A stretch of 32,000 nucleotides of DNA from Candidatus Bathyarchaeota archaeon (GTDB lineage: Archaea > Thermoproteota > Bathyarchaeia > Bathyarchaeales > Bathyarchaeaceae). The stretch lies in contig CAVOMX010000014.1 of assembly GCA_963697165.1 (NCBI GenBank), positions 49,862 through 81,861 on the forward strand. The letters are read 5' to 3'. Below the pieces are notes generated by a model, which saw only the letters and a program-made list of their open reading frames with translations, had not been told where the DNA came from and did no database searches. The position numbers and the translations under genes are program-made. Positions within the stretch are counted from its first letter, which is position 1, and the number at the start of each line of letters is the position of its first letter. This document shows positions 2,564-32,000 of the stretch, in pieces.

Positions 2564-2564
2564 T

Positions 2565-3426: not shown

Positions 3427-3437
3427 ACTTTTTCCTC

Positions 3438-4430: not shown

Positions 4431-6104
4431 CTAGATCAACGCCTTCCGGTTTATAGAATTGTTTACGTCGTCAAGGCTCCAATGCCATTTCTGACCATTT
4501 TTGGTATCAATGAATGCCATACGGTCAGTGCAAGAAAAGCATGGGTCTAAGCTTCCCATCACAGAGGGAATATCAGCGATGTGGGCACCCCTAATTGCAT
4601 CTGGAAATGCCATAAGGTTAGCTAAGGTTGGAGCTCTGACCTTAACTCTGTAAGGATAGGCGGTTCCATCACTTTTAACATAATGGATAAGCTCGCCTCT
4701 CGGAGCCTCAACACGGCTAACAGCCTCACCTTCAGGTATTTTTCGTTGAACCCTAACCCGCAAACGACCCCCTGGAATGTGACGAAGCGCATATTCTAGT
4801 ATATCCAAGCTTTCCAGTACTTCTTCAGCTCGAACCATCAGCCGAGCCCATGTGTCACACTCCTTATAGCTCACTACATTGAAAGGAATTTCCCCATACG
4901 CCGCGTAAGGGTCATCTTTTCTGACATCAACAGCAATTCCTGACCCACGTGCAACAGGACCAACAACACATAATTTCAAAGCATCTGCTCTGTTCAATAC
5001 GCCGACCCCTTCGGTTCTCATCCTCAATGTCGGGTCTTCATCGAATACCTTCTTGTAGAAAGTCGCCCGTTTCCTGACATCTTTGACTGTCTTCAGAGTC
5101 TTCTCAATTGTACTTGGGTCTATATCTCGTCTTACTCCGCCGATTGTGTTGAACCCGCACATCAGTCGGTTTCCCGTGATTCGTTCGATTATATCCATTA
5201 CAGGTTCTCTGTCACGCCACACATGCTGGAATAGTGCTTCAAAACCAAGCAGGTGACCGCCAACTCCAAGCAATAGGAGGTGACTATGAACTCTGTTTAG
5301 CTCATGTATAATAGTACGTAAGTATAATGCACGAGGCGGAGTCTCAATGTTTCCGATGTCCTCAACAGCTTGACAGAAGACAGTTGTGTGAGCAGCATTA
5401 CAGATACCACAAATTCTCTCCACCAAAAACACGTCTTGGAAGTACATCATGCGCTCAGCCGCTTTCTCAATACCCCTATGAACATATCCAAGACGCGGCT
5501 CAACATCCACAACCGTTTCCCCATCAACTTTGAAGTTGAATCTTTCTGGCTCATGCAAAACTGGATGCTGAGGCCCTACAACGACGTTAATTATCGACCC
5601 AGAATCATCTTCCGCTGATTCAGTCTGCGAAGCTTTCTCAGAACTGAAAGCAATTTCTTGGTTAACCGGAGGCTTCCAATCTTTTCTAAGAGGATAATTT
5701 CCTTGAGGCCAATTCTCAGGAAGCAACAACCTTTCCAGATTTGGATGACCCTCAAAAGCGACTCCTAAGAGGTCAAAGACTTCCCGCTCATACAAATTTG
5801 CTCCGGGCAGGATGTCAGTAATCGTTTGGGTAACAGGGTTTTCTCGAGAAACACGGTTCTTGAGGGTTATGGTTCCCGCACAAGCCATGTGATAGTTTAA
5901 CTCGATCTCGTTTCCTAAATCAACGCCACTTATTGTCGAAAGCTCCACGTCCTCAACTTGTGTTAGGAGCAACGAGATTGCATCTCTGTGACGTTCAGGT
6001 TTAAGAAGAATGTAGGCTTTCCTTGGCCTAGGGACTCTACACTCGAGAATCGAATCAGCCAAATTATTCTTGAGAACTTCTACAGCATTTTCGAACGTGT
6101 TCAT
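4431..6104 (-). CDS. Fused NuoC-like domain plus group-4 [NiFe]-hydrogenase large subunit (HycE/NuoCD architecture). The Ni-Fe ligand motifs are intact.
   Basis: The N-terminal half shows the NuoC signature (LYEREVFDLLGVAFEGHPNLERLLLP...YPLRKDW). The L1 motif RICGICNAAH lies at nt 5388-5417 and the L2 motif DPCFSCTDR at nt 4521-4547; I re-translated both from the DNA. A 29-aa extension follows the Arg. Confidence 0.85.
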   Translation of the reverse strand: MNTFENAVEVLKNNLADSILECRVPRPRKAYILLKPERHRDAISLLLTQVEDVELSTISGVDLGNEIELNYHMACAGTITLKNRVSRENPVTQTITDILPGANLYEREVFDLLGVAFEGHPNLERLLLPENWPQGNYPLRKDWKPPVNQEIAFSSEKASQTESAEDDSGSIINVVVGPQHPVLHEPERFNFKVDGETVVDVEPRLGYVHRGIEKAAERMMYFQDVFLVERICGICNAAHTTVFCQAVEDIGNIETPPRALYLRTIIHELNRVHSHLLLLGVGGHLLGFEALFQHVWRDREPVMDIIERITGNRLMCGFNTIGGVRRDIDPSTIEKTLKTVKDVRKRATFYKKVFDEDPTLRMRTEGVGVLNRADALKLCVVGPVARGSGIAVDVRKDDPYAAYGEIPFNVVSYKECDTWARLMVRAEEVLESLDILEYALRHIPGGRLRVRVQRKIPEGEAVSRVEAPRGELIHYVKSDGTAYPYRVKVRAPTLANLMAFPDAIRGAHIADIPSVMGSLDPCFSCTDRMAFIDTKNGQKWHWSLDDVNNSINRKALI

Positions 6105-6110
6105 AGTTTG

Positions 6111-6524
6111 CTATCCCTTCAATTTTCCAAGTAATTTCGCGACACCCTGCACTATTGCTTCGGGTTTTGGAGGACACCCCGGAATATAAACATCAACAGG
6201 AATTATCTCATCGAGACGCTTACTCACACCGTAACATCCTTGAAATATTCCTCCGGAACAGGCGCAGGCTCCTATTGCTAGAACAAATTTTGGTGAGGGC
6301 ATTTGCTGATAAATCATCTCGAGTCGTGGTGCACACTGCTTAGTAACAACTCCGGTTACCACAAGAACGTCTGCATGACGAGGTGAGGGCTCAAGTTTCA
6401 CACCGAAACGTTCAACATCGTATCTGGGCGTCAGCAGCGCAACAACTTCAATATCGCATCCATTGCATGCTCCGGTATTGAAGTGAAGCAGCCATGGCGA
6501 GTTTATTCTAGCCCATTTCACCAA
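6111..6524 (-). CDS. NuoB/HycG-like [4Fe-4S] small subunit (hydrogenase-type cysteine pattern)
   Basis: 137 aa with TGACNGCDIE, AIGACACSGG and IPGCPPKPE, the cysteine pattern of group-4 hydrogenase small subunits. Confidence 0.85.
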   Translation of the reverse strand: MVKWARINSPWLLHFNTGACNGCDIEVVALLTPRYDVERFGVKLEPSPRHADVLVVTGVVTKQCAPRLEMIYQQMPSPKFVLAIGACACSGGIFQGCYGVSKRLDEIIPVDVYIPGCPPKPEAIVQGVAKLLGKLKG

Positions 6525-6541
6525 GCCTAAGTCTGGCGTCT

Positions 6542-6865
6542 TTAGTAGCCTCCCATAAGCAGTAGGTCTGCTGCTAAAATTATACCCAAATAAATTAACA
6601 AAGAGAAGGGGTTGATAATCTCTAGAGCTAAGGCTGCAAAAGCCAATATCAACGCAGGGGAGTCTATTATAACAAAGAATATGAGGTACTTATAGAGAGT
6701 AACATTAACCAACAGCCTTTTTGAGAACACTTTTTCTCCACATGCATACATTGCGCTTTTTTCTTCGTTAGCAGGAGATTTTTTTGTTAACAAGCCGCTG
6801 GACAAGTAAATCAATGAAGCAATGAACAAGATAATTAGAAAAGCAACAAGAGACTCTACAAGCAA
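6542..6865 (-). CDS. nuoA: NuoA-like three-TM subunit (divergent), first gene of the operon
   Basis: 107 aa with three TM helices. The loop motif YACGE matches NuoA YECG, and FFVIIDSP matches the NuoA FLLFDVE region. It has a TTG start and is preceded by 520 bp of AT-rich non-coding DNA. Confidence 0.5.
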   Translation of the reverse strand: MLVESLVAFLIILFIASLIYLSSGLLTKKSPANEEKSAMYACGEKVFSKRLLVNVTLYKYLIFFVIIDSPALILAFAALALEIINPFSLLIYLGIILAADLLLMGGY

Positions 6866-13321: not shown

Positions 13322-13756
13322 CTATTCTGTTTTAAAGTGTTCCCATCCTCGAGCGTCTACAGAAACAGTTTTTTCACCTGTTTTTAGCAGACATTGTTTC
13401 TCTTTGGTAACTATTCCAATCTGTGTGAGATTTCCTCCCACTGATTCCACAGCTTTTTTTGCTTCCTGCCAAAGACTTGGTTTAATTGTTACAACAAGCT
13501 CATATTCCTCTCCGCCATACAAAGCTAACTCCGCAGAATCAAAACCATGAATATCCGCAAACATTTCCACTTCATGAGCTATAGGAAGATTGTTAATACA
13601 AAAGCCCACGTTACTCGCTTTAGAAAGCTCATGAAGACTCCACGCTAAGCCATCGCTAGAGTCTATGGAGGCAGTTGCGACCTGCGATTGAGCCAAAGCT
13701 ATTCCTTCATTGACCCTTGCATTGGGCATGAGGACAGACTCAACAAGCACTCCCAT
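13322..13756 (-). CDS. thiL: ThiL C-terminal fragment
   Basis: PNARVNEGIAL....ASIDSSDGLAWSLHELSKASNVGF matches the ThiL C-terminal domain (P.pR..g..l...a.iDiSDGL). This frame stays open upstream through ...EDGLSAPDIMGVL. The two fragments together total 328 aa, a normal ThiL length. Confidence 0.8.
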   Translation of the reverse strand: MGVLVESVLMPNARVNEGIALAQSQVATASIDSSDGLAWSLHELSKASNVGFCINNLPIAHEVEMFADIHGFDSAELALYGGEEYELVVTIKPSLWQEAKKAVESVGGNLTQIGIVTKEKQCLLKTGEKTVSVDARGWEHFKTE

Positions 13757-14310
13757 TATATCAGGAGCTGAAAGCCCATCTTCAGAATCTTCAATCCAGA
13801 GGTTGTTTTTCCGAAATAACCAGTTACTGCAATGTAATCTCCGGCTTTTGCGCCACTACGCTTTATCAAGTGATGCCTGTTGCATACTCCTAAGGCGGTG
13901 CAACTTATTATTAACTCAGAGGCTTCGTTTGTGTCGCCTCCCAGTATGTATGTGTCGTATTCGCGGGCGCCAGCATTTAGTCCCTTGCTCATCTGTTGTA
14001 TGTCCGTTTCTGTAAAGTTTGGAGGTACTCCGATAGAGGCCAATAGAGCTAGAGGCTTTGCTCCCTTTGCTGCTAGATCACTTATGTTCATTACTACTGC
14101 TTTGCGGGCGGCTTGCCAGAGGCTCATGGTTCGCGGAACATCTGTTTTTCTGACGAGCATATCAATGTTTATTACTGCAATTTTGTCGTGTCCCATGTCT
14201 ATTGCTGAGGCGTCGTCTCCGAATGGAAGTGGCGTATTGGGCATCTGGTCCAGGCAATCTAGAATGAGTTTTATGATTTTTCTTTCGCCCAGATCCTTGG
14301 CTGAACTCAA
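13756..14310 (-). CDS. thiL: Thiamine-monophosphate kinase ThiL, N-terminal fragment (the gene is split by a -1 frame change)
   Basis: GERKIIKLI..FGDDASAIDMG..VINIDMLV, AVVMNISDLAAKGAKP, ILGGDTN and GAKAGDYIAVTGYFG form the classical ThiL/AIR-synthase-related pattern. The ORF stops where the family normally continues. Confidence 0.8.
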   Translation of the reverse strand: MSSAKDLGERKIIKLILDCLDQMPNTPLPFGDDASAIDMGHDKIAVINIDMLVRKTDVPRTMSLWQAARKAVVMNISDLAAKGAKPLALLASIGVPPNFTETDIQQMSKGLNAGAREYDTYILGGDTNEASELIISCTALGVCNRHHLIKRSGAKAGDYIAVTGYFGKTTSGLKILKMGFQLLI

Positions 14311-14331
14311 CGTGAGACCCTCATCATGTAA

Positions 14332-14357
14332 TGTTTGCTCCCGAATGTCTTAAAAAT
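14332..14357 (+). repeat. 26-bp direct repeat, copy 1 (TGTTTGCTCCCGAATGTCTTAAAAAT). It contains a TATA-like TTAAAAAT.
   Basis: It matches 16495..16520 at 25 of 26 positions in the same orientation. Confidence 0.8.
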
Positions 14358-14652
14358 ACCTGTTAATGTTAACGAGGGCATATTGATGAGCACAGGGAAC
14401 AAGCGTCGCTCCTAAGATAGCCATGGGTTACTATCTGAGATCATCTGGAAAAACTGAATAAATGCAACAGCAATGAGAATAATATAGGAATTAACCTAGA
14501 ATAACTTGGGATAAAAAGAGAATAATTCTGAAAAATCCTTTTATAATATATAGGGCGCTGAAATTATCAGAAAATATGTCAAAAGGTTAAAAGAGATGGG
14601 TGATGTGGCAGGTTCTGTTTTTGAAACAAATATATATTACATCTAAAGGCTC

Positions 14653-16119
14653 TTGTACAACAATAACTGGAGAGGAAACGGCGTGAATGCAAACAAAGTT
14701 GTGTTTTTAATTTCTTTATGTGTAATAGTTTTATGTGCAGTTAATATTCAACCGATTAGAGCACAAGAAACTACAATTGTCTATATTTTAAGCGATGGAA
14801 GCTTTCAATCTTCAACAGGAATTGGAGCACCTATCCAAAAAGAGGGAAATGTATACACTCTCACAGACAACCTTGTCGGTTATTCTTTGGCGGTTCAATG
14901 CGCAAACATTACAATTGATGGTGCGGGCTTTAGCCTCTCAGGAGATGGTGAAGTAGGAATAGATTTGTCAAACATAAATGATGTAACGATCAAGGATTTG
15001 CTTATACAAGGTGCTTATTACTACGGCATCCGCATGATGGTATCCTCTGACATCACAATCCTGGGAAATACCATAACTGGAAACAATTTTGGCATTTATA
15101 TAAGCAACTCTACACGAAATACAATTTTGGGAAATACAATAAAGAACAATGGTGTGGGCATTAACATAATGTCGTCATCAAATCTAGTGTTTAGAAATAA
15201 CGACATAGAAAATAATCAAAATATAGCGGTTTATGGCACATTGCTTTCACACTTCGCTAATGATATTGACGTTTCAAACACAATCAATGGAAAAAAAGTC
15301 TATTATTTGATCAATGAAAAAAATCTAGTTATAACTCCAGATACATTTCCAGACGTAGGAATGCTTGCACTCGTAAGCTGTACGAACATAACGGTTCAAA
15401 ATATACAACTAACTGATAATGGACAAGGATTATTATTGGCATACACGACAAACTCGAAAATAGTAGACAACACAATAACTGAAAATTATAATGGAATATT
15501 GATTTTTAGCGCTTCCAACAACGAAGTTACAGGCAACACAATAATCAACAGTTATAGAGCCCTCCAAATTAGCAAGTCTTCAAAAAACAACAGGATAAAT
15601 AATAATAATATAACTGACAACAAGGAAGGGATTCTTTTATTCGATTCTTCACTGAACACTTTTGTTGGCAACATCTTCCAAAATAACGAGATGGCCATGG
15701 GTTTCAGTTCGTCATCAAGCAACACAATTTATGGCAACTATTTCATCAATAATAATGAACAGTTTTATGACACTAGCATGCAGGATTCTTCAATAAGTAA
15801 CTCGATGAATTATTGGTACTTTGATTATCCTATAGGCGGCAATTATTGGAGTGATTACATAGGTTTTGACCTAAAGAGTGGGGTCAATCAAGATCAAGAG
15901 GGCAGTGATAACATAGGAGATACACCCTACATTATATACGAAAACATAAAAGATGAATACCCACTTTTGCCATATGGAAGTCCTCTCGCGGTGTCCATTG
16001 TTTCGCCTGAAAATAAGACATACAATTCAAACTCTGTTCTCTTAAAATACACGACGAGTAAAACAGAGTTAGTGATAGGTTACAGTTTAGATGGATCAAA
16101 CAAACATCACAGTCAGTGA
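14653..16119 (+). CDS. Secreted right-handed parallel beta-helix (PbH1/NosD-like) repeat protein, main fragment
   Basis: The N-terminal signal/anchor is VVFLISLCVIVLCAVNIQPIRAQE. Many ~22-aa repeats of the type ITGNNFGIYISNSTRNTILGNTIKNNGVGINIMSSSN follow. The frame ends inside a C-terminal Ig-like domain. Confidence 0.8.
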   Translation: MYNNNWRGNGVNANKVVFLISLCVIVLCAVNIQPIRAQETTIVYILSDGSFQSSTGIGAPIQKEGNVYTLTDNLVGYSLAVQCANITIDGAGFSLSGDGEVGIDLSNINDVTIKDLLIQGAYYYGIRMMVSSDITILGNTITGNNFGIYISNSTRNTILGNTIKNNGVGINIMSSSNLVFRNNDIENNQNIAVYGTLLSHFANDIDVSNTINGKKVYYLINEKNLVITPDTFPDVGMLALVSCTNITVQNIQLTDNGQGLLLAYTTNSKIVDNTITENYNGILIFSASNNEVTGNTIINSYRALQISKSSKNNRINNNNITDNKEGILLFDSSLNTFVGNIFQNNEMAMGFSSSSSNTIYGNYFINNNEQFYDTSMQDSSISNSMNYWYFDYPIGGNYWSDYIGFDLKSGVNQDQEGSDNIGDTPYIIYENIKDEYPLLPYGSPLAVSIVSPENKTYNSNSVLLKYTTSKTELVIGYSLDGSNKHHSQ

Positions 16120-16357
16120 AAGCATAACATTATCTAGCTTGTCTGATGGTCCACATAAACTGACGGTTTATGCAAAAGATACAGATGGAAATGGAACTTC
16201 TGACACAGTTTACTTCACTATATCCGAAGAAGCAGAAACACCAACGGATAATGAAGAAACAGAGGAGTTACCAATAACATTGATTGCTGCAGCAATAGGA
16301 GTATTGGTTGCAATTGGAGTGTCTCTTTTATACTTCCTGAAGATAAAGAAAAAATGA
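16091..16357 (+). CDS. C-terminal fragment of the beta-helix protein (Ig-like strand set, acidic linker, C-terminal TM anchor), +1 out of frame
   Basis: NITVSESITLSSLSDGPHKLTVYAKDTDGNGTSDTVYFTI continues ...YSLDGS of the upstream ORF. The fragment ends with PITLIAAAIGVLVAIGVSLLYFLKIKKK, a TM segment with a basic tail. Confidence 0.7.
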   Translation: MDQTNITVSESITLSSLSDGPHKLTVYAKDTDGNGTSDTVYFTISEEAETPTDNEETEELPITLIAAAIGVLVAIGVSLLYFLKIKKK

Positions 16358-16494
16358 GTCTCATAAAAGGGTGATCCCAATTTAAGTTCACATACAGGGT
16401 TGTAGACGCTGTAGCCACCCACCAGCGGATGATGCACAAGCACATTTTTATTTCAATAACAGAATAGAAAATTTTTAGGTGCACCTCTGTTGGC

Positions 16495-16520
16495 TGTTTT
16501 CTCCCGAATGTCTTAAAAAT
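16495..16520 (+). repeat. 26-bp direct repeat, copy 2 (TGTTTTCTCCCGAATGTCTTAAAAAT)
   Basis: It matches 14332..14357 at 25 of 26 positions. Its 3' end lies 28 nt upstream of the tRNA-Thr(CGU) 5' end. Confidence 0.8.
16512..16520 (+). promoter_or_regulatory. TATA-box-like element of the tRNA-Thr(CGU) promoter
   Basis: CTTAAAAAT ends 28 nt before the mature tRNA 5' end. That is the usual archaeal TATA-to-start spacing. Confidence 0.5.
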
Positions 16521-16547
16521 GCGTATTTCGCTCAATTCACTGCAAAC

Positions 16548-16624
16548 GCCTCGGTGGCTCAGCCCGGTAGAGCGGCAGCCTCGTAAGCTGTTGGTCGCGG
16601 GATCAAATCCCGCCCGAGGCTCCA
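16548..16624 (+). tRNA. tRNA-Thr (anticodon CGU), CCA encoded
   Basis: The hand-folded cloverleaf has acceptor GCCUCGG/CCGAGGC, D stem GCUC/GAGC, anticodon stem GCAGC/GCUGU, loop CU-CGU-AA, a 5-nt variable loop and T stem GCGGG/CCCGC. The discriminator is U and is followed by CCA. Confidence 0.95.
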
Positions 16625-16792
16625 TTCTTGAATTATAGACTTGTAGCCAGTTTATGAAATTTCTGAGGTTTCTGAAACATGTAGCGCATGTTCAAAAGAA
16701 GTTTAGGTATAGAAAACTTTTCAGGGCACAAAGAGTATATATTGTATCGTAAGTAACCATATTAGAACAATAGTTTTTGGAGGAAACAATCA

Positions 16793-17673
16793 ATGGTTGA
16801 AAAAAAATTCATAGCAATCGTACTGGTTTGTGTTGCTCTATCGGTTGGATTAATTGGAACTACAATGGCACTTGACCAGAAAGACAAGGAGACAGCAAAT
16901 CAAAACGTGATCAAATCTCGGGACTTGAAAACGAAAAACTTACTTTAGAAGCTCAAGTTTCAACCATTCAATCTGAAAAGGTCATTCTGGAAATCCAAGC
17001 TTCAAACATCCAATCCGAAACCACGTCACTAAACGACGAAAAGAATGCTCTTGAAACTCAAGTTTCGAGCCTCCAATCCGAAACAACTGCATTAGAAAAC
17101 GAAAAAAGCACACTAGAAACACAAGTTTCAGATCTGCAAGGTAACGTTTCACGTCTCCAATCCGAAGTATCCTCATTAGAAAGCGACAAACTTTCTTTAG
17201 AAACACAAGTTTTGAAACTTCAAGCTGATGTCACGTCATTGGAAAATGAGGTTATTCAAAGCTTCAGCTCAGGTTATGCTGACGGCAAATCTGACGGTTA
17301 CCAACTCGGCTACGATGATGGATATGTTCAAGGCACAGAAGAAATGTCTGGAAGCGGCTGGTACTTAAGAGACCCAACATATGATGAGGCGATTGTTTTC
17401 ATAAATTCGGACACAACAGATCAAAATGAGTGGACCCCTACGTATGTTTGTTATGACTTTACAGCCGACTTCAACTACAACGCCCTTCAGGCGGGTTACA
17501 GATGCGGATTTGTGTATATCGAATTTGACGACGGGGCTCATGCAATAACATGTTTCAACACTACAGACAGGGGACTAATCTACATAGAACCCCAAACTGA
17601 CGAAATAGTTCCAGTAGCAATTGGTCAACTCTATGACGTCTACATCATAGAACGTTTGGGCATTATCTGGTGA
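16793..17673 (+). CDS. Membrane-anchored coiled-coil protein with a C-terminal Cys-His-Asp (transglutaminase/papain-like) domain. It is split by a -1 frame change between 16876 and 16948.
   Basis: ATG at 16793 lies 10 nt after GGAGG and gives MVEKKFIAIVLVCVALSVGLIGTTMAL..., stopping at 16946-16948. The -1 frame is open from 16876 and encodes 16 heptads and the globular domain, but has no start codon before the TTG at 17212. Confidence 0.7.
16924..17259 (+). repeat. Coding tandem repeat of 16 uninterrupted heptads (21-bp period, higher-order 63-bp units)
   Basis: The heptads begin LENEKLT/LEAQVST/IQSEKVI/LEIQASN/IQSETTS/LNDEKNA/LETQVSS/LQSETTA/LENEKST/LETQVSD and so on. Leu or Ile occupies the first position of every heptad. 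Confidence 0.85.
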
Positions 17674-20281: not shown

Positions 20282-20358
20282 GCCTCGGTGGCTCAGCCCG
20301 GTAGAGCGGCAGCCTTGTAAGCTGTTGGTCGCGGGATCAAATCCCGCCCGAGGCTCCA
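20282..20358 (+). tRNA. tRNA-Thr (anticodon UGU), CCA encoded
   Basis: It is identical to the tRNA at 16548..16624 except for position 34 (T instead of C; loop CU-UGU-AA), so the cloverleaf is the same. Confidence 0.95.
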
Positions 20359-24042: not shown

Positions 24043-24579
24043 TTGGCCCCAAAAGAACGTTCAGTTAAAAGAACTACAATAATTCTGGATGAAAACGAAC
24101 GTGAATACATCGATTTGCTCATACAAGAAGGTAGAGAACCGGGAATAAAACCCCTCATCTCAAAGATGCTTGACGTTTACCGAAGCATGAGCATCTACGA
24201 CTGGAAATTCCCCGGAGAATACTATATTGGAATCAGTCGCGTAGCCTTTCTAAACGTCGAATTTATCGACATTCTTCTCAATTATATCCCCGAAAATAAA
24301 TGGAAAGAAGTTGGACGAAAGATTGGAGAAATGGCTAAAGTTTCTCTGGAGGCAAGCATCGACATAGAAACCACAAACAGGGAAAGATGGCCTGAAGTGT
24401 TTAAGAGGTTGCGGGTCCAAGGTTTCGGAGACTTTTATCTTAAAAACAAATTTGTGATAATTAGAACACCACTTATAAGTAATTCCGAGTTTTTATGTGG
24501 ATTCATAGAAAGTTTGCTTGGAATTAGCTTGGAAGCGAGAACCCTAACACCTCCCCTCGTCTTAGAGATCATCGGCTAA
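24043..24579 (+). CDS. Putative regulator with an N-terminal ribbon-helix-helix and a C-terminal V4R-like sensor domain
   Basis: KRTTIILDENEREYIDLLIQEG is RHH-like (beta strand then helix). The C-terminal GFGDFYLKNKFVIIRTPL...FLCGFIESLLG resembles V4R domains by eye. The start codon is TTG. Confidence 0.5.
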   Translation: MAPKERSVKRTTIILDENEREYIDLLIQEGREPGIKPLISKMLDVYRSMSIYDWKFPGEYYIGISRVAFLNVEFIDILLNYIPENKWKEVGRKIGEMAKVSLEASIDIETTNRERWPEVFKRLRVQGFGDFYLKNKFVIIRTPLISNSEFLCGFIESLLGISLEARTLTPPLVLEIIG

Positions 24580-24601
24580 ATGTATCTTAAGGATGAGGAG
24601 C

Positions 24602-24625
24602 AGAATCTTTGGAGATTCTATTTTT
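24602..24625 (+). terminator. Hairpin plus T5 terminator after the regulator gene
   Basis: AGAATCT-TTGG-AGATTCT forms a perfect 7-bp stem. It is followed by ATTTTT. Confidence 0.5.
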
Positions 24626-24837
24626 AAAAATAGTTTGGCAAAAATAGTCACAGTTGATGAATTTTTTAATGTGATTCGTATAACAAATAGCCAAATAATA
24701 AGTGGGTAATGGCACAATCAATATTATTTTTATATATTTATATTCTGAATTGAATGGTTATTTGCAGTATATATTCTGGTTTCATATGTGTTAAATATTT
24801 TGTCTTCAGAGTTTCTTGACACAGGAGAAGTCTAATA

Positions 24838-25269
24838 ATGAAGAACATCCTAAAATCGAAGAAGGGAATTTCGCCAATCCTCGCTACACTCCTCTTAATC
24901 GTAATTGCCGTAGCAGCAGTCATAGTAACCTACGCTTGGGTCATGACATTCACAGGATCCACCACAAATCAGGCAGGAGCTGTACTAAAAGTTGATAACG
25001 TAAGATTCTACAATGACGGAGCTAACATTGAAATTATAATAAGAAACTCTGGAACAGGTGATGCACAGGTCGACACGGTATATGTAGGTACTACAGTCTC
25101 AAGCCTTGCTACACAAACGGGGGTAGCATATAGTCCAATTTCGCAAATTGTCGCAGCAGGTTCAACACTTAACGCCACAATCACATACGATTGGACAGAT
25201 GGAACAACATACTACTTCAAAATAACCACTGAAGAAGGATTTGAAATTCCATTCAGCAGAGAAGCATAA
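24838..25269 (+). CDS. Archaeal type IV pilin (class III signal peptide), probably the major pilin
   Basis: MKNILKSKKG|ISPILATLLLIVIAVAAVIVTYAWV has a basic n-region, a Gly at -1 and a hydrophobic helix, matching the archaeal pilin N-terminal domain. The protein is 143 aa and is preceded by AGGAG. Confidence 0.85.
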   Translation: MKNILKSKKGISPILATLLLIVIAVAAVIVTYAWVMTFTGSTTNQAGAVLKVDNVRFYNDGANIEIIIRNSGTGDAQVDTVYVGTTVSSLATQTGVAYSPISQIVAAGSTLNATITYDWTDGTTYYFKITTEEGFEIPFSREA

Positions 25270-25373
25270 CATCAACTTCCTCTCTTTCCCTTTCGTTACG
25301 AATAAAACGTAAGTTTTACATCTGAATTTTTATACCCCATTTTTTACAAACATAAACGGCAGATGATCTTAGC

Positions 25374-26168
25374 GTGAACCAAATACTAGATGGTGCTCGA
25401 ATTATCATATGTCTAAGTTTCTTGTTTTACGCTTCTTGGAGCGACTACAAAACCAGAGAAGTAAGTAACAAAGTTTGGATCATCTTAGGACCATTAGCCC
25501 TAGCACTAACAGGGTTTCAGTTTTTAGTATATTCAGCCCAACCGCTTCAACTTGTAACAACCTACGTCCTATCTTTTGCAATAACTTCAGGTTTAGCCAT
25601 AGCCGTCTTCTACGCTGGAGGCTTCGGAGGAGCAGACGCAAAAGCTTTCATGTGCATCGCTCTTGCTTTACCTGTTTATCCTGACTATCTTCTTCCACAA
25701 CCCCCGGGTTTTGTTTCCCCTCTTTTTCCAATAACAATCTTCACCAACAGTGTTCTATTAGGTGCCCTCAGCGTGTTCTACGCTCTCTTCCGAAATCTTC
25801 TATGGATAGTTAGAAACAGAGGAAACGTCTTTGAAGGCTTGAAAACAGAGTCTTTTGGGCACAAAATTCTGGCACTTATAAGCGGCTACAAGGTCAAAAT
25901 GGCTAAACTAGAAAAGGGACACATGTTTCCTCTTGAAGACGTTGAGCTGAAGGATGATGGTGAGAAAAAGAGAAAGTTGCTAGCGTTTCCGAAATATGAG
26001 GAGCGCGAAGATATTATTGCAAGAATCCGAGAAAACGTAACAGATGAAAAACGTGAAGTATGGGTTACCCCGGGTTTGCCTCTCCTCATCTTTATCACAG
26101 CAGGTTTAATCATTGCTTTGGCTTACGGAGACATTGTGTGGGTCCTGCTCGGATCACTCATCACCTAA
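25374..26168 (+). CDS. Prepilin/preflagellin peptidase (A24 family, FlaK/PibD-like)
   Basis: It is polytopic, with a first catalytic Asp region SWSDYKTREV and a second motif GGFGGADAKAF. A soluble insert lies before the last TM segments, as in FlaK. Confidence 0.85.
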   Translation: MNQILDGARIIICLSFLFYASWSDYKTREVSNKVWIILGPLALALTGFQFLVYSAQPLQLVTTYVLSFAITSGLAIAVFYAGGFGGADAKAFMCIALALPVYPDYLLPQPPGFVSPLFPITIFTNSVLLGALSVFYALFRNLLWIVRNRGNVFEGLKTESFGHKILALISGYKVKMAKLEKGHMFPLEDVELKDDGEKKRKLLAFPKYEEREDIIARIRENVTDEKREVWVTPGLPLLIFITAGLIIALAYGDIVWVLLGSLIT

Positions 26169-26192
26169 AAAATTGAACTGTTACAAGTTTGC

Positions 26193-26215
26193 GAGAAAAC
26201 AGATTTCTTTTTCTC
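26193..26215. terminator. Hairpin between convergent transcription units
   Basis: GAGAAAA-(9 nt)-TTTTCTC forms a 7-bp stem. It is T-rich on both strands. Confidence 0.4.
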
Positions 26216-26267
26216 CAGTGTTACACTTGAAGAATTTGTATTGGAAAATCTAAAGTTTAATTATTCT

Positions 26268-26564
26268 TTAGAAGTAAAGACTGTCTTTGTATAGAAGCCT
26301 AGCTTGTAAGAGAACAGTTAGGCCCTTAGCGGTTACTGTGGATGCTATCCAACCCATCACTCCAAGGTATAGGATGCGGATGGCGGCTTCTATTAGAGGG
26401 GACAAGGCTTCTCCGAAGGATGACAAGAGGTTAGGAACGGGCAGGATATTGATTTCTCCATAAAGATGAATAGATGCCATAGTGAATGTGATTAATAGGA
26501 GAGCGATTCCTGTGAGAAGAATAACTATTCCTGAAGTTTCAGAGGACTTTATCCGCACCCACAA
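26268..26564 (-). CDS. Small membrane protein (2-3 TM), last gene of the pilin-like operon
   Basis: 98 aa with a TTG start 5 nt after the upstream stop. The hydrophobic segments are IVILLTGIALLLITFTMA and ILYLGVMGWIASTV. Confidence 0.55.
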   Translation of the reverse strand: MWVRIKSSETSGIVILLTGIALLLITFTMASIHLYGEINILPVPNLLSSFGEALSPLIEAAIRILYLGVMGWIASTVTAKGLTVLLQARLLYKDSLYF

Positions 26565-26569
26565 TCACA

Positions 26570-28498
26570 TCAGTCTACTGTAACACTTGGGGGATATTCC
26601 ACCATCACCCAAAGACCATTGGATCCAGAGCTTGGGTAGATCGGCTCACCATTAAAGGTTACGACTGCGCCATACCAAGTCACATCCAAAGGATCTTTAA
26701 AGGGAGATACTGAAATTTGTTCCACTGGATTAAACTCGATACGTGAAGCAGTTACGTTTAGAGCTCCTGTTTTGTCGTCCACGATAGAATCGAAAGTGTA
26801 AAGTTTCTGGTTATATAAGTCAGTGAACATTAGCCCTGCTCCCGAGTTTCCTGAACTGACTTGGCTCCAATGATGATCCCAACCTGTTGGTGAACCGTCA
26901 TAGAAGAGAACTGTGGAACTGGAAGTTTCAGGGTAGACTCCATCGGTTCCGTCTTCTGTTAGTGGCGTTCCACTGAGACCTGAAATTTGGATGGCGCTAA
27001 GATCAGAAACGATCCTGCTCTGGGAGGAGTTTACGAAAATTGTTCTTGCTGCATAGGTATAATATGGTGTGTTTGCCGGTAATGTCAAAAAGACCTGTGA
27101 ATAAAAGTTAGGACTACCTGCAACTCCGCCACTGTATTCTGGTTCTTGTTGAATTATGTCTCTGACTACGCCGTTGTAGATTACATACGCAGGTTGTGCC
27201 CCGTACGTAGGCAGTTCATCATTGACACGTAGAAAATCCGCTCTATAGCTAGTTGAGTTGCCTAAAACACGTGAAACTACATAGAAATTATTTATGTCTA
27301 GTCTTAGAAATCCGTTTCGTAAAATTCCAGAAGACGGATTGTCATTGAAGTAAACGTTTTCCCAAGCATAGGACGTCTGGATTGCTCTGTCGTTCCCATC
27401 CCACCATAACGTAACCTCGCTAATAGCATTATTAACTAAAAATACTAACATTCTATTGTTGTTGAGTAGGCTATTGTTTCCAGCAAGTCCAAGAGGTATC
27501 TGGTAGGAAGATGCCCAATTTTCCACTTGGAAAGGCACCTCTTGGTTAACACCATTGATGGTTGCGTTAACATGAAGACCTTTGACTGAAATTGGAGGAA
27601 TCGGTTTCGTCTGAGGGGTTAGTTCCAGATTTTGGCCAAGCCATCTTAAAGTGCCGTTTTGGAGAAGCTCAATAACCATTGTATCCGTGGACAAAGACTC
27701 ATAAATTGTTTGCATGCCATTAACGTTCCAGTTAAAAGTGTAAGTGTAATGGGGAATTCCTGAGCTAACAGAGTTTTGTGAATAAAAAGCGGTTACTATT
27801 ATACCTCTATTGTCTTCAACTTGAACCGAGTATGCATCTTGGTCTACTCCTGAAGGAATTGTTAGGGTATAAACTCCGTTAGAAGAGATTATAAGGTTAG
27901 TTGGATTGACTAGCTCCCAAGTTGAGTCATCATAGTTGTATTTGTAGAACCAGAAGTTTTCTTCGCTTAATCCTAGTTCAGGCTCGGTATTATCACGAAT
28001 GACCTTGATTTGGGCTACACCAGAACCTGAGGATAGCATTGTGACTTTCAGGGCTGAAGATGTTTCATATGTTACTCCCTCGATTCCGAGACTCCCCAAT
28101 GAATAAGTTAGTGAAATGTTTCCCACACTGTAGCTCTCAGGCATATACCAACGGGTGGAGACTTGGTCAAAACTGAGTGAGAAGGATGGGTTCCATTCAG
28201 GATGCGAATGCGCAATATGGACAAGCCCGCTCGAAAGATAACTGTCAGTGAGGCTCTGGGCGTATGTTGAGTTACCGGTAACTTTCAGTATTGAACCGTA
28301 ATATCCAACTGTATGATCCAATATTCGTTTGATATCCGCATTCATTTCTCCCATAGCTGTTAGGACTGTGGGTGAGTTCTGTATCGGAGCGTAGCGGACC
28401 ATACTATAAGTGGATATAACTGCAGTTACTAGAATCACAGATACAAGTAACGCCGCGATTATGGAGAACTGCCCCTTATTCGCTCTACTACCCTTCAT
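26570..28498 (-). CDS. Large pilin-like protein (642 aa) with a canonical class III signal peptide
   Basis: MKGSRANKG|QFSIIAALLVSVILVTAVISTY is the signal region. The remainder is Ser/Thr/Asn/Tyr-rich and beta-like, with many N-x-S/T sequons. Confidence 0.75.
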   Translation of the reverse strand: MKGSRANKGQFSIIAALLVSVILVTAVISTYSMVRYAPIQNSPTVLTAMGEMNADIKRILDHTVGYYGSILKVTGNSTYAQSLTDSYLSSGLVHIAHSHPEWNPSFSLSFDQVSTRWYMPESYSVGNISLTYSLGSLGIEGVTYETSSALKVTMLSSGSGVAQIKVIRDNTEPELGLSEENFWFYKYNYDDSTWELVNPTNLIISSNGVYTLTIPSGVDQDAYSVQVEDNRGIIVTAFYSQNSVSSGIPHYTYTFNWNVNGMQTIYESLSTDTMVIELLQNGTLRWLGQNLELTPQTKPIPPISVKGLHVNATINGVNQEVPFQVENWASSYQIPLGLAGNNSLLNNNRMLVFLVNNAISEVTLWWDGNDRAIQTSYAWENVYFNDNPSSGILRNGFLRLDINNFYVVSRVLGNSTSYRADFLRVNDELPTYGAQPAYVIYNGVVRDIIQQEPEYSGGVAGSPNFYSQVFLTLPANTPYYTYAARTIFVNSSQSRIVSDLSAIQISGLSGTPLTEDGTDGVYPETSSSTVLFYDGSPTGWDHHWSQVSSGNSGAGLMFTDLYNQKLYTFDSIVDDKTGALNVTASRIEFNPVEQISVSPFKDPLDVTWYGAVVTFNGEPIYPSSGSNGLWVMVEYPPSVTVD

Positions 28499-28501
28499 GA
28501 A

Positions 28502-29827
28502 TTATGTTCCTCCTTGCTGACCTAGTTGGAGGGTGACAAGTCTTGAAGTGCCATCCGCTCCGAACTCTGATTGATAGATGGTGGGTCTGAAGTGCATTAA
28601 GAGAGCCAAGCCGGTGATCCTTATGTCAGGAATCCTTGTTAGCCCGATTGCAGTGAAAGCTCCACCTCGTTGGTGAGTGAAAGTTGCGCCTGCAATCCAT
28701 CCTGGGGATACAGTTTCGAAAACATAGTCGTTTGGTTGAACAGTGAGGTTGTATGTATTCAGGATTGAGTCTGGAAGGGCTCGGGTGGCTGTTTGGTATG
28801 GAGAAGGAAATATCCCATAATAATTTGAACTCTCATATGCGTAGGAACTGAATTGTACTACTCCCCCTCCTGGTGGTGTTCCGGCAATTCCGCTATCACT
28901 GAAGCTAGTTGGTGGTGGATTTTGGTATTCGTGATCTAAACCTTCCAGAAACGCATTGAGCCCTGACTGTCCTACCATCATCATACCATAGATTCCCCAT
29001 GTGTTGTCGCTCCCTGAGAATTTTACAGTGTTAGTAACGTAATACAAAGGGTAACCTACGATGCTGACGTATGTCCAATTGTATTGGTTTATTTTTTGTC
29101 CTAGAACATAGCAATATTGTGCATATGAATCAGCAGAATAAAGGTCTGCATAAGCTGAAGGAATTGGAATAGCCTCACCACATGTGTTGATTATAACTCC
29201 ATTTTCCAAAGTCTCACCAACTAAGGGTGTTCCATCTAGTAGGTTTCCAAACTGAGCGGTAGAGTTCACGAGAATAGTTGTGCTAAAATATGGAGAGAGA
29301 AGATGGTAGAGGTCTAATGCAAGGGTTTGCAGGGAGTATCCTGTAATCCACCATCCGTTTGCGTCATTGCAGTTCAGGATATACAGCGTGATGTTTTGTC
29401 CTGTGCTTTCTCCCACTTTTTGTGAATCTTGGGCGAATGTAACATCGGGTGATGCCACCATTAATGATGCAGCCTCAGAATCTGCTCCGAAACTTGCATC
29501 TGATTTCGATGTTGCTAATTGATATGTTACAACTTCATCAGTGTCTGAAAGAATGTCATAAACTGTAAGGTTATACACTACGTTGGGTGGAAGAGAAGCT
29601 GAAAGAGCTTTTTGCAGGTCACTCCATGCAACATCAGATGAGTCTTTGAAAACTGTCTCACTTAAAATACCCTTTTCATCCAAAGTTTCAAGAGTTGATT
29701 GAGAAAGCCCTCGCAGATTAGTTCCGAAAGCTTGGCGTGGCGTAGGCAAAACAGCAAAATATGATGTGATAACGAAGGCTCCAAGTAGGATTACGATTAC
29801 GAATAGCACTTCAACAGTTCTCATCAA
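28502..29827 (-). CDS. Large N-terminally anchored pilin-like protein (441 aa)
   Basis: The N-terminus is MMRTVEVLFVIVILLGAFVITSYFAV, with T-V-E next to the hydrophobic helix. The extracellular-type composition includes sequons. The gene starts 13 nt after the upstream stop. Confidence 0.65.
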   Translation of the reverse strand: MMRTVEVLFVIVILLGAFVITSYFAVLPTPRQAFGTNLRGLSQSTLETLDEKGILSETVFKDSSDVAWSDLQKALSASLPPNVVYNLTVYDILSDTDEVVTYQLATSKSDASFGADSEAASLMVASPDVTFAQDSQKVGESTGQNITLYILNCNDANGWWITGYSLQTLALDLYHLLSPYFSTTILVNSTAQFGNLLDGTPLVGETLENGVIINTCGEAIPIPSAYADLYSADSYAQYCYVLGQKINQYNWTYVSIVGYPLYYVTNTVKFSGSDNTWGIYGMMMVGQSGLNAFLEGLDHEYQNPPPTSFSDSGIAGTPPGGGVVQFSSYAYESSNYYGIFPSPYQTATRALPDSILNTYNLTVQPNDYVFETVSPGWIAGATFTHQRGGAFTAIGLTRIPDIRITGLALLMHFRPTIYQSEFGADGTSRLVTLQLGQQGGT

Positions 29828-29840
29828 CGCTCATCACCAC

Positions 29841-31061
29841 CTAATTGTCCAATTTCCATGTAGAAACCTTCACATTATATGATAAACCGTCGATAGTGAC
29901 CGCCCTAAGTTCAGTAGCAACAAAATTGTGACCACTAGAATCAAGACCTTCACTAAAGGAAGTTGATGCTCCAAGGACTCCAAGACCCCAGGGCATCGAA
30001 ACACTTCCTAGTTTATTATTCCACCTATATGTAATGAATAGAAATCCTACTTCAGAAGCGGGAATTTGTGTAGTTTCAAAATCTTTAGAGCCATAATTTA
30101 GGTGACCTGTAGAATTATCTACCACAACCTGCTCTAACTGAAAGTCGGGAGTCAAAACATAAAAGGTGGCGTTATAATTAACGCTCGGCACTGGATTTTG
30201 TGTATACTCGTGAACACCCCAGCTATGGGCAATCATAATTATTCCTTCATTGTAGTCTTTAATCAGCGGTACAACATATTCAGGATAATCACCAATATCA
30301 TCCTGAGAATAATATCCTACACCAGTAAGCCCACTTAGACGAGCATATACCATGAACTGGTATGCATCATCCTCATCATCAATATCCTCAAATTCTAGTA
30401 GAACTGAACCTAACGAGTCAGTTTGACTAACTCCCGAATAAGGGACAATTGTAGAAGTAGAACCTCCTCCCTTGTCGACTTGAAAAAGATAATAATTCAA
30501 GGTTGCACCACTCAAAGGATATCCTGACCCACTTACATCAACTTCAAGAGCAAGATGACCAAAACCCAGAACCTTTGAAATGCTAACGTTCACAATTGGC
30601 CTAATATCCAAACTGAAGCCATATGTCCCATTTATCCCCAGCAACTTCGAAGCCGTGGAGTAGTTTATACAATCACCCAGGGGAGTTAGTATCGAATTTC
30701 CAAAGTTTGCAGTAATATTGTTATAGAAATTACCAGAGTCAGGAGGGTATTCAACAAGTTGGCTACCAGTAGAATCAACTCTCAATCGCATCATCGAATA
30801 CGGACTAAGAGAATATCCACCAGCCACAGGATCTTGAAGACCAAAACCTAAAACAGAACTGTTTGTTGCCCCCCAATCTACAGGACTTCCAGGAGACAGA
30901 CATATTGTATTCATTATATCTACGGCTTTTGTGGCAACTTGAGTGTTGGTTTCATAAGCAACTGCGCTGCTGAACATCTGATTGAAGCTGGTCATGGCAA
31001 AAAGCAATGCAGCTATAAGAATTATAAGTGATACCATGTGGTCTATTGTAGCTCCAGCCAT
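29841..31061 (-). CDS. Large N-terminally anchored pilin-like protein (406 aa)
   Basis: The N-terminus is MAG|ATIDHMVSLIILIAALLFAM. GGAGG lies 8 nt upstream of the ATG, and the gene overlaps the upstream gene by 19 nt. Confidence 0.65.
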   Translation of the reverse strand: MAGATIDHMVSLIILIAALLFAMTSFNQMFSSAVAYETNTQVATKAVDIMNTICLSPGSPVDWGATNSSVLGFGLQDPVAGGYSLSPYSMMRLRVDSTGSQLVEYPPDSGNFYNNITANFGNSILTPLGDCINYSTASKLLGINGTYGFSLDIRPIVNVSISKVLGFGHLALEVDVSGSGYPLSGATLNYYLFQVDKGGGSTSTIVPYSGVSQTDSLGSVLLEFEDIDDEDDAYQFMVYARLSGLTGVGYYSQDDIGDYPEYVVPLIKDYNEGIIMIAHSWGVHEYTQNPVPSVNYNATFYVLTPDFQLEQVVVDNSTGHLNYGSKDFETTQIPASEVGFLFITYRWNNKLGSVSMPWGLGVLGASTSFSEGLDSSGHNFVATELRAVTIDGLSYNVKVSTWKLDN

Positions 31062-31543
31062 TTAATTAACCTCCAAAAGAAAAAATAAGAGGTACTGTTA
31101 GAAAATTTTTGGACATTAATTGAAGCACCAGCAGAATTGCTCCTAAGAGTCGAATCTATCCATTCAACATTAGGACCAAGCAAAGCCGACGCCGACAAAG
31201 TGTTACCTAATTCATCCAATGTTATTGTGACAATGAGAATCTTAACCGACCCGGGTTCGGAGATGCTACTTAACGACGCCGTGGCTGTGTAAGGATAAGA
31301 AGCAACAGTTACTGGAAGTGTTGAAGCTTGATTAACGTTTCCCGCCAATATTTCATCCCGATTTACTGTCAGATAAAGCTGCTGAATAGTACTCGCTAAA
31401 TGGTTTGCTACATCCTGCAAAGCAACATCCCTTTGAGAATCCTGCCAACTGGAGGTCATTGTACTCGCCACAAAAGGAAACACTATCACCTGACTGAAAA
31501 GCAAAGGAATCAAAATCACATACTCAATCGTAACACTTACCAT
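31043..31543 (-). CDS. TadE/Flp-like pseudopilin-type protein (166 aa)
   Basis: The N-terminus MVSVTIEYVILIPLLFSQVIVFPFV resembles the (A/T)-(I/V)-E-(Y/F)-hydrophobic motif of Flp/TadE-type pilins. The C-terminal residues YFFFWRLIKWLELQ, read across a T-run, may be a read-through artefact. Confidence 0.6.
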   Translation of the reverse strand: MVSVTIEYVILIPLLFSQVIVFPFVASTMTSSWQDSQRDVALQDVANHLASTIQQLYLTVNRDEILAGNVNQASTLPVTVASYPYTATASLSSISEPGSVKILIVTITLDELGNTLSASALLGPNVEWIDSTLRSNSAGASINVQKFSNSTSYFFFWRLIKWLELQ

Positions 31544-31571
31544 CTATGAACTATCTCCTGTTTTGTTGTTT

Positions 31572-32000
31572 CTAGTAATTAATTCCAAATCCAACTGACA
31601 CCTCGCTTAAGTAAAGCTCCAAAACCACATTGTCGAACCCGGAAGTTGGAACTGGAATATCCTCAGAATCAAAGGGAAAATTGAAGAATGTGGAATTGAA
31701 ATTCTCGGGTGAATCTTCTCGAGGAAAATCAACACTAACAGTTATGCCTGTAACGCTGTCTATAGTGTTGGCCGTGAAAGAGTCCCCAGTTAAAGTAAGG
31801 GATTGAGAAAATCTTGGCGATTCTCCTGCACTAAGAACCGGGAGGTACATTCTAACATAGTATGTTGAACCTAAAGAAGTGTTAATGGAAGAATAAAGAA
31901 CTCTAACTGCCGGGGCTACAACCACTCGTATGTAACTTCCGTCAGCCATAGGCAACTTTTCAACAGCAAACACGCGGGCGACCGGAGCAGAAGTACCCTT
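31572..32000 (-). CDS. Hypothetical secreted/pilus-associated protein, 5'-partial (the frame is open to the window edge)
   Basis: My translation of 31974-32000 (KGTSAPVAR) is in frame with the track ORF, so the GTG at 31973 is probably not the real start. The gene lies 28 nt upstream of the next operon gene. Confidence 0.55.
   Translation of the reverse strand, partial: KGTSAPVARVFAVEKLPMADGSYIRVVVAPAVRVLYSSINTSLGSTYYVRMYLPVLSAGESPRFSQSLTLTGDSFTANTIDSVTGITVSVDFPREDSPENFNSTFFNFPFDSEDIPVPTSGFDNVVLELYLSEVSVGFGINY

Follow-up and report, generated by a model that had tools for sequence, protein, structure and literature searches.

The last part of a 32,000-nucleotide (nt) stretch of Candidatus Bathyarchaeota archaeon DNA (contig CAVOMX010000014.1; the whole stretch is called the window below, and all positions are counted within it) is occupied by six minus-strand genes, g1 to g6, and constitutes the distal portion of a Bathyarchaeia operon for an archaeal type IV pilus. 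The assignment to archaeal type IV pili follows from the gene order secretion ATPase, platform, g1, g2, g3, g4, g5 found in 80 species, together with an adjoining class III pilin gene and an adjoining gene for an A24-type peptidase. Across those 80 species-level genomes the locus seems to represent a conserved pilus system of the class. The best overall explanation of the operon, and one that we consider probable, is that it encodes five pilin-like subunits forming a priming or tip complex that includes an adhesin. Three of the five (g2, g3, and g4) have no class III leader, and below we consider what their N-termini may mean for filament assembly.

At the upstream end of the operon, g1 (31572 to 32000 and beyond) is a pilin-like gene whose open reading frame (ORF) leaves the window, so that it is 5′-partial and supplies the C-terminal 142 codons of a protein of approximately 286 to 289 amino acids (aa). 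It is followed by g2 (31043–31543; 166 aa; N-terminus MVSVTIEYVILIPLLF, MVSVTIEY...), g3 (29841–31061; 406 aa; MAGATIDHMVSLIILIAALL, MAGATIDH...), g4 (28502–29827; 441 aa; TTG start; MMRTVEVLFVIVILLGAF, MMRTVEV...), g5 (26570–28498; 642 aa; MKGSRANKG/QFSIIAALLV, the slash marking the class III cleavage site here and below), and the operon's last gene, g6 (26268–26564), which encodes a small membrane protein of 98 aa. The ORF list bears out what a model's earlier annotation of the window (the sequence-only reading) had given for these six closely spaced genes, namely their coordinates, N-termini, and gaps, the last being 28, −19, 13, 3, and 5 nt as computed from the ORF coordinates. Because Shine-Dalgarno-like motifs at plausible spacing precede the starts of g2, g3, g4, and g5 (GGAG, GGAGGT, GGTGGTGA, and GGAGG, in that order, with the TTG start of g4 sitting after GGTGGTGA), the unusually short N-termini of g2 to g4 gain support.

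On the opposite strand, and converging on the operon, lie the genes for a 143-aa pilin (24838–25269, plus strand) and for a class III signal (prepilin) peptidase of 264 aa (25374–26168, plus strand). Both had been predicted from the sequence, and family matches confirm them: the pilin, which carries the class III signal KKG/ISPILATLLLIVIAVAA, scores 31.2 bits on TIGR02537 (cut-off 20), and the peptidase matches the Pfam models Peptidase_A24 (expect value (E) 6.8e-13) and Arc_PepC_II (3.4e-20). The pilin, presumed to be the filament's major subunit, is UpsA-like at E 1.3e-7 in the NCBIfam scan, under the cut-off, and its N-terminus is almost invariant in 43 loci. The convergent spacer that separates the operon from the peptidase gene (26169–26267) contains oligo-T tracts on both strands (cctaaaaaattg and tttctttttctcc), which suggest a role as terminator. 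Just upstream of the pilin gene, a 178-aa protein (24043–24579, plus strand) has no family match and a ribbon-helix-helix-like N-terminus, KRTTIILDENEREYIDLL; it is the best-conserved neighbor in close relatives (median identity 83%, versus 50% for g5), and may regulate pilin expression.

No secretion ATPase gene lies inside the 32,000-nt window, and the context beyond position 32000 was read from orthologous contigs, not from the window's own contig. In a survey of one genome per species, the order ATPase–platform–g1–g2–g3–g4–g5 was complete in 59 of the 80 species-level loci; the other 21 are cut by contig ends and are colinear up to those ends, and none is discordant. Contig L088, which is 96.7% identical at the DNA level to window positions 24160–32000, reaches 1959 bp past position 32000, and there encodes the rest of g1 (289 aa in all, ...GKKG/VSPVISS...) and then 496 aa of a T2SSF platform protein, 90% identical to the platform of locus L002. 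The operons of L002 and L003 comprise a T2SSE ATPase (approximately 540 aa), a T2SSF platform (approximately 565 aa), g1 (286 aa), and g2 to g5; g6 follows g5 in L002 and is not found there in L003, and the L002 peptidase and pilin genes converge on the operon end. The sequence-only reading had placed any ATPase and platform genes beyond position 32000, and this is where they are found: upstream in the 59 complete orthologous loci, with the platform seen directly past position 32000 in L088. Searches of genome and metagenome contigs for an exact match to the window's terminal 52 nt returned none, and exact-protein look-ups of g2 and g3 likewise gave no match.

The peptidase gene is linked to the operon in 63 of the 80 loci, running in the same direction in 54 and in the opposite one in 9, and in most species the pilin and peptidase genes lie downstream of g5 on the same strand. 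Because of this mostly codirectional placement after g5, the set from the ATPase to the pilin and peptidase behaves as one unit. In contrast to the five-gene core, g6 has orthologues directly after g5 in only some 10 loci (7 among the 80 species-level loci), all in close, Bathyarchaeum-like relatives, and matches no Pfam or NCBIfam family. The same five-gene module, in the same order, stands next to the ATPase in the distant loci L085 and L087 (hidden Markov model (HMM) E 3e-14 to 8e-113), and L086 holds a variant of it. All 80 loci belong to Bathyarchaeia except for two bins labeled bacterial: contigs L025 and L028 carry the archaeal operon in metagenome-assembled genomes labeled Krumholzibacteriaceae and Limnocylindrales, which is most likely binning contamination. 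In L087 (GCA_027491455.1), a second, miniature g1–g5 set in the same order lies directly after the module (13433–17270; 285, 191, 333, 170, and 293 aa), apparently a tandem duplication; its g1-, g2-, and g4-like members match at HMM E 2.7e-7, 1.5e-3, and 1.5e-8, and the other two were assigned by N-terminal motif and position. The pilus ATPase of L086 (2712–5780; 1022 aa) contains an intein (Intein_splicing, with a faint LAGLIDADG match).

The components by which an archaeal type IV pilus is recognized are all present at the locus (T2SSE ATPase, T2SSF platform, A24 peptidase, and class III pilin), and the earlier call of a type IV filament module is thus sustained by the association of all four. 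T2SSE was matched by 33 of 33 ATPases scanned and PilB3_C by 32 of them (best E 7.4e-10). The platform matches T2SSF at 5e-19, with one T2SSF gene per locus, and resembles UpsF, BasF, and FlaJ, in each case under the cut-off. We rejected an archaellum, since the ATPase falls under the cut-off of the FlaI equivalog model (360 bits versus 550) and archaellum accessory genes are lacking; among g1 to g6 there was no match to archaellum families or to the accessory genes ArlF/G/H/X/CDE. An S-layer operon was rejected as well: neither the family scans nor the PDB profile searches matched the operon proteins to an S-layer, ABC-associated, or other non-filament family, the kind of match that the sequence-only reading had named as evidence against a filament module.

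Two of the five subunits, g1 and g5, carry class III signals. Full-length g1 orthologues start ...GKRG/MSPVVSTVIMTG (L002) and ...GKKG/VSPVISSVIMTG (L088); the signal is conserved as [KR][GA]/[IVM]SPA[IV]ST, and the N-terminal 41 residues align with the major-pilin profile at 78% probability (hhalign, E 1.9e-5). The g5 signal, [KR]G/QFSIIAALL, deserves the description "textbook" that it had been given, in that it is canonical, conserved across orthologues (the core G-Q-F-S-x-I-A-A-L-L is 100% conserved), and matched to the pilin profile (62% probability, hhalign). The AlphaFold2 model of g5 is partly confident (predicted local distance difference test (pLDDT) 56, with β-rich residues 104–330 at 70 to 92), and its Foldseek matches were weak (template modeling (TM) score ≤ 0.13) and confined to Ig-like, SGBP-B-like, and a few β-propeller chains, from which we take no more than that the predicted fold is β-rich. 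Many g5 orthologues are longer, at 790 to 1090 aa, and have F5/8 type C or Reelin-B (galactose-binding-like) domains inserted near the C-terminus. These features make g5 a candidate adhesin; adhesins borne on a filament would be expected to combine just such a constant pilin-like stem with sugar-binding domains that vary at the distal end. The large proteins of the operon are indeed Ser/Thr/Asn/Tyr-rich, as had been observed (30% to 33% S+T+N+Y, versus 15% to 22% in the window's other proteins, with K+R at 3.6% to 4.7%). The abundance of N-x-S/T sequons that had been read as a sign of glycosylation does not go beyond composition: sequons number 1.1 to 1.7 per 100 aa, versus 0 to 1.0 in the window's other proteins, and this frequency is explained by the Ser/Thr/Asn-rich composition (8 observed versus 9.0 expected in g5; 7 versus 4.1 in g3).

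The remaining three subunits begin almost directly with their hydrophobic helix. A basic class III leader (ending in [KR][GAS]) is absent from g2, g3, and g4 across approximately 60 to 75 Bathyarchaeia species, and over the same species the T-(I/V)-(E/D) motif first noticed ahead of the helix proves to be conserved. The conserved cores are M-x-x-[IV]-T-I-E-Y in g2, M-x-[GS]-x-T-I-D-H in g3, and M-[MI]-R-T-[IV]-E in g4, with E at 93%, Y at 92%, and Pro13 at 100% in g2, D7 and H8 at 100% in g3, and R3 and E6 at 100% in g4. The distance from the start codon to the acid is nearly fixed: g2 starts exactly 6 codons before its Glu in 56 of 60 species, residue 2 being small (P, A, V, or T) in 57 of 60; g3 starts 6 codons before its acid in 60 of 64 species, with a small residue 2 in 63 of 64; and g4 starts 5 codons before its Glu in 68 of 76 species, with M, I, or L as residue 2 in 69 of 76. 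The most conserved accessory protein is g4 (median identity 53%, versus approximately 40% for g1 to g3).

Structure models were made as single chains of g3 and g5. The AlphaFold2 model of g3 (mean pLDDT 73; predicted TM score 0.69) has a 50-residue N-terminal helix (6–55), a poorly defined linker, and two β-sandwich domains within residues 147–403 (pLDDT approximately 90), for which Foldseek found generic FN3/Ig tandems only. The long pilin-like N-terminal helix that had been suspected is therefore present in the model, and g3 as modeled is the archaeal pilin plan enlarged. In P0292, P0295, P0299, and P0303, a g3-type N-terminal part (MASDIIDF..., MAQNTIDY...) opens proteins of 814 to 2446 aa, which suggests giant adhesins on a leaderless pilin stem.

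Family-level comparisons place none of the operon's proteins: g1 to g6 all stay below the Pfam and NCBIfam thresholds, and PDB profile searches with g2 to g5 returned nothing relevant. The sub-threshold matches are recurrent nonetheless. The window's g2 scores 14.1 bits on DUF7266 (cut-off 27.6), which 6 of 40 g2 members match (best E 1.6e-4); g3 scores 15.6 bits on DUF7287 (cut-off 27), matched by 40 of 62 members (best E 0.006) over the N-terminal ~45 residues only; and DUF7288 is matched by 1 of 43 g4 members. We take these three families to be haloarchaeal, and we regard the similarity as no more than a lead toward a possible haloarchaeal link: when distant g3 relatives were built into a profile aimed at the haloarchaeal DUF7287 proteins, the search returned Vulcanisaeta/Caldivirga-type proteins only. 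Among g1 to g5 themselves, hhalign gave no paralogy except between the class III N-termini (g2 versus g3, E 0.008, not significant).

The origin of the short N-termini is clarified by distant homologues. Searching 1.8 billion representative proteins with a g3 profile gave 259 clusters, and Vulcanisaeta homologues of g3 carry a true class III-type leader, MLNSKSRARG/QTSAVEVALIMPV (...RARG/QTSAVEV). The L087 homologue of g4 (E 5e-85) begins MWSGRCKGG/WLRILE and its small paralogue MKRGCKG/QIRVLE, neither having an alternative start codon downstream of the leader, and a g4-like protein in L086 begins MNSRG/QMRTVE. In all three of these g4 relatives, cleavage after Gly leaves x-x-R-x-x-E with the acid at +6, the register of the window's M-M-R-T-V-E, and Vulcanisaeta Q-T-S-A-V-E aligns with A-G-A-T-I-D of g3. 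Because the leader cut sites align with the window's N-termini, g3 and g4 of the window begin where the mature forms of these relatives begin. The remark that g2 to g4 have "almost no basic leader" was correct as an observation, and can be refined as the loss of a class III leader kept by homologues elsewhere. The leaderless members would accordingly be descendants or sisters of leader-bearing pilins, judging from these alignments.

The initiator Met is removed only ahead of small residues, an established rule, and by this rule mature g2, g3, and g4 would all carry an acid at +6. The start position co-varies with residue 2: where this residue is small, the start codon stands 6 codons ahead of the acid, and where it is large, 5 codons ahead, or 4 in some distant g3 relatives. 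Among g3 representative clusters (counting as the conserved acid one that is followed by Y, H, or F), a small residue 2 goes with an acid at position 7 or 8 in all 48 and a large one with an acid at position 5 or 6 in all 22, although the sequences are related and do not amount to an independent test. Because residue 2 decides whether the initiator Met is removed, the acid would always stand six residues from the free N-terminus, and a constraint on the distance from free amine to acid would produce this co-variation. We suggest, as a possibility to which we give slightly less than an even chance, that g2 to g4 are minor pilins that are "born mature": their class III leader would have been lost, translation would start at residue +1 of the processed form, residue 2 would set Met removal such that the acid stays at +6, and the proteins would enter the filament without the prepilin peptidase. 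Starting at the processed +1, they should therefore not need that enzyme.

In the arrangement that we favor for the operon as a whole, g1, g5, and the 143-aa pilin would be made as class III precursors and cut by the neighboring A24 peptidase. The five products of g1 to g5 would all be pilin-like subunits, built from a hydrophobic helix at the N-terminus and a body rich in β structure; produced in low amounts together with the motor, they would gather into a membrane complex on the platform, prime filament growth, and finish at the tip. Because g5 is larger than the others, has no acid, and in many orthologues is equipped with a sugar-binding domain, it would be placed on top as the distal adhesin, with g4, g3, and g2 below it, followed by g1 and the 143-aa pilin. 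The acids of g2 to g4 would pair with the N-terminal amines of neighboring helices, and the 143-aa pilin would polymerize beneath the complex. We infer filament assembly of g1 to g5, their order, and the acid–amine pairing by analogy with the bacterial minor-pilin/PilY1 and GspHIJK complexes; in bacterial type IVa pili, four or five minor pilins and PilY1 prime assembly and cap the tip (PMC7541494), and the top subunit is without the conserved acid.

Several points weigh against this picture. For the N-terminal register, the leader of the L086 g4-like protein hinges on which start codon is used, the acid would end up at +5 in one distant g3 subgroup (MHIYEY...), the acid of g2 is missing in 3 of 5 distant g2 homologues (L085 to L087), and the +6 position is derived from the Met-aminopeptidase rule, not from protein data. 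For the filament, the placement of g1 to g5 is a deduction, the models being single-chain predictions, of which that of g5 is poor (pLDDT 56), and hhalign detected no significant similarity between g2 to g4 and the class III pilin N-terminus. Archaeal major pilins are generally without a Glu5-type residue, the idea of charge pairing having been taken from bacteria, and a missing leader is also a hallmark of membrane-anchored pilin-like proteins that are not part of a filament, such as ArlF/ArlG (FlaF/FlaG).

This last point leads to an alternative that we regard as unlikely, though the most serious of those considered, in which g2 to g4 (and perhaps g1) are anchored bitopic proteins with an uncleaved helix, forming a collar, stator, or alignment complex at the pilus base like ArlF/ArlG or PilN/PilO/GspL-M, and only g5 and the 143-aa pilin are exported into the filament. 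Such a complex would account for the absence of a class III cleavage motif from g2 to g4 in the ~60 to 75 Bathyarchaeia species and of significant profile similarity to pilin N-termini; the strict one-to-one occurrence of g2 to g4 with the ATPase and platform, and the standing of g4 as the most conserved accessory protein, are likewise what a machine part would show. Yet homologues of g3 and g4 elsewhere have canonical class III leaders whose cut site aligns exactly with the initiator Met, an invariant acid at a fixed 5 to 6 residues from the N-terminus is a feature of pilins, and g3 is modeled as a pilin-like helix with Ig-like domains. Moreover, g2 to g4 are almost without a cytoplasmic segment with which to touch the ATPase or platform.

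Lower still in probability is a short pseudopilus or bindosome-like scaffold that displays large sugar-binding proteins (g5 and g3) to capture polymeric substrates for uptake or degradation. The galactose-binding-like modules of g5 orthologues would suit such a device, type IV filament (TFF) machines functionalized with binding proteins have been proposed (bioRxiv 10.64898/2026.04.22.720090), and BasE and BasF of the Sulfolobales bindosome are the next-best models for the ATPase and the platform (238 and 110 bits). Both scores, however, fall far short of the respective cut-offs (1000 and 1300); across the 80 loci the module has no linked ABC transporter, and only in L003 does one lie 1.3 kb upstream; g1 to g5 include no solute-binding-protein fold or family; and the operon is linked to a small pilin of its own that is highly conserved. 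The kinship with the Tad/Flp (Epd) branch proposed in the sequence-only reading, with g2 to g4 as TadE/TadF-type pseudopilins processed at a G/XXXXEY-like site, we judge very improbable and have dropped: the motif is similar (...TIEYVILIPLL in g2, and G/QTSAVEVALIMPV in leader-bearing relatives) and 3 of 40 g2 members touch Pfam TadE (PF07811), but those matches (E ≥ 0.13) are noise, g3 and g4 have none and the window's own g2 to g4 none at E ≤ 1, the linked pilin has 143 aa and is PilA/UpsA-like and not Flp (about 50 to 80 aa), the ATPase is FlaI/PilB3-like with 181 bits on the TadA-family model TIGR03819 (cut-off 373) versus 360 on FlaI, the peptidase has the archaeal Arc_PepC_II domain, and a cleavable leader with Gly is absent from the window's g2 to g4.

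Elsewhere the window holds genes of a housekeeping character: a nuo operon, SurE, phosphoenolpyruvate carboxykinase (PEPCK), BacA, Alba, and a radical-SAM gene. Within the nuoA-B-CD-H-I-J-K-L operon (304–6865), NuoC (30 kDa) and NuoD (49 kDa) are fused into one protein of 557 aa (4431–6104, minus strand). An AIR-synthase-related protein is divided between two minus-strand ORFs overlapping by 1 nt (13322–14310; AIRS N-terminal, 184 aa, and AIRS_C, 144 aa); this is a frameshift or pseudogene, or else a gene that is truly in two pieces. A 488-aa NosD/β-helix protein (14653–16119, plus strand; 37.5% S+T+N+Y) may be another surface protein; a similar gene lies approximately 7 kb from the pilus operon in L003 (19334–20938). 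Two tRNA-Thr genes, with anticodons CGT and TGT, lie at 16548–16624 and 20282–20358 (plus strand), and because the CGT gene overlaps a 135-aa ORF on the opposite strand (16218–16625), that ORF is probably not a gene.

Bathyarchaeia are among the most abundant archaea of anoxic sediments and have barely been cultured. To the question of their attachment to particles, polymers, or partner cells the locus adds a parts list, namely five protein families that are unannotated and whose homologues number from hundreds to more than 1000 each (458 for g3 and more than 1020 for g5), nearly all of them unnamed or "hypothetical," the named ones being from Bathyarchaeia. The word "uncharacterized," which had been applied to the module, holds for the g1 to g5 families and not for the general kind of locus: earlier work describes pilus loci of archaea that encode a number of minor pilins together with adhesins, some of them lacking class III motifs (PMC4858521; bioRxiv 10.64898/2026.04.22.720090). 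A limited literature search found no use of the term "leaderless pilin" and no paper on Bathyarchaeia pili, nor did it find a description of the five-protein Bathyarchaeia module, the kinship of its leaderless members to leader-bearing pilins, or the N-terminal register rule. If the leaderless reading is true, the module would be a natural experiment on the need for a class III leader and prepilin peptidase in filament assembly, with peptidase-free entry into the filament as a route that we have not found described for any type IV filament system, and it would provide a simple sequence rule for finding leaderless subunits, which FlaFind-type searches miss by design.

Among known proteins, ArlF and ArlG resemble g2 to g4 in being pilin- or archaellin-like proteins whose hydrophobic N-terminal helix escapes cleavage by the class III peptidase. 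They differ in being small stator proteins of a rotary motor, whereas the present locus has no archaellum genes, an ATPase under the FlaI cut-off, and leader-bearing homologues of g3 and g4. The Epd system of Methanococcus maripaludis shares a multi-gene locus with several minor pilins that are reported to be essential for piliation (PMC3875500), and Epd and TadE/TadF/TadG proteins share an acidic and then an aromatic residue after the N-terminus; Pfam TadE is unmatched here, and the pilin, peptidase, and ATPase types differ.

The bacterial FimU-PilVWX-PilY1 (PMC7541494) and GspH-I-J-K complexes likewise bring together four to five pilin-like proteins that differ in size, are of low abundance, and are encoded as a group, with one large adhesin-type member, a separately encoded major pilin, and an acid near the N-terminus in most members, the presumed top subunit excepted. 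No homology to them, in sequence or in fold, could be detected (PDB profile searches with g2 to g5; Foldseek with g3 and g5); the bacterial proteins all have cleavable leaders and an acid at +5, whereas three of the Bathyarchaeia proteins have no leader and would have the acid at +6, and archaea are without an outer-membrane secretin.

Closer likenesses are found among archaeal pilin loci. Those of the Thermoproteales Vulcanisaeta and Caldivirga, which are of uncertain ATPase affiliation and related to subclades 4E/4A (PMC4858521), contain true homologues of g3 (HMM E 1e-26), followed by large class III proteins (KRG/Q... and HG/QARILE...) in the same register, the g4- and g5-like assignments having been made by motif alone. 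Their gene order and content differ, the g3 homologue keeps its class III leader, and within 10 kb there is no ATPase or platform. MoxR and vWA genes lie upstream, as in the Vulcanisaeta contig L084 (4515–7042), where a MoxR-type AAA ATPase and a vWA protein precede the g3-homologue cluster, in agreement with the association of MoxR/vWA with archaeal pilus loci noted in PMC4858521.

The System 2/clade 2 loci, of the Haloferax volcanii PilB3/PilB4 type (Makarova et al. 2016, PMC4858521; Sivabalasarma & Albers 2026, bioRxiv 10.64898/2026.04.22.720090), share with the Bathyarchaeia locus the presence of just one platform gene, an ATPase whose C-terminal domain is PilB3-like, their own downstream set of pilin-like proteins mixing class III and motif-less members, a large adhesin-like protein, and the recurrent sub-threshold matches of g2 to g4 to DUF7266, DUF7287, and DUF7288. 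They are unlike it in that the host here belongs to Bathyarchaeia (Thermoproteota) and not to Euryarchaeota, and in that g1 to g5 fall under all Pfam and NCBIfam cut-offs; moreover, Bathyarchaeota are listed only under Aap-like systems and subsystem 4A (bioRxiv 10.64898/2026.04.22.720090). Judged by gene content rather than by an ATPase tree, and with subsystem 4A as the alternative, the layout of the locus fits System 2/clade 2.

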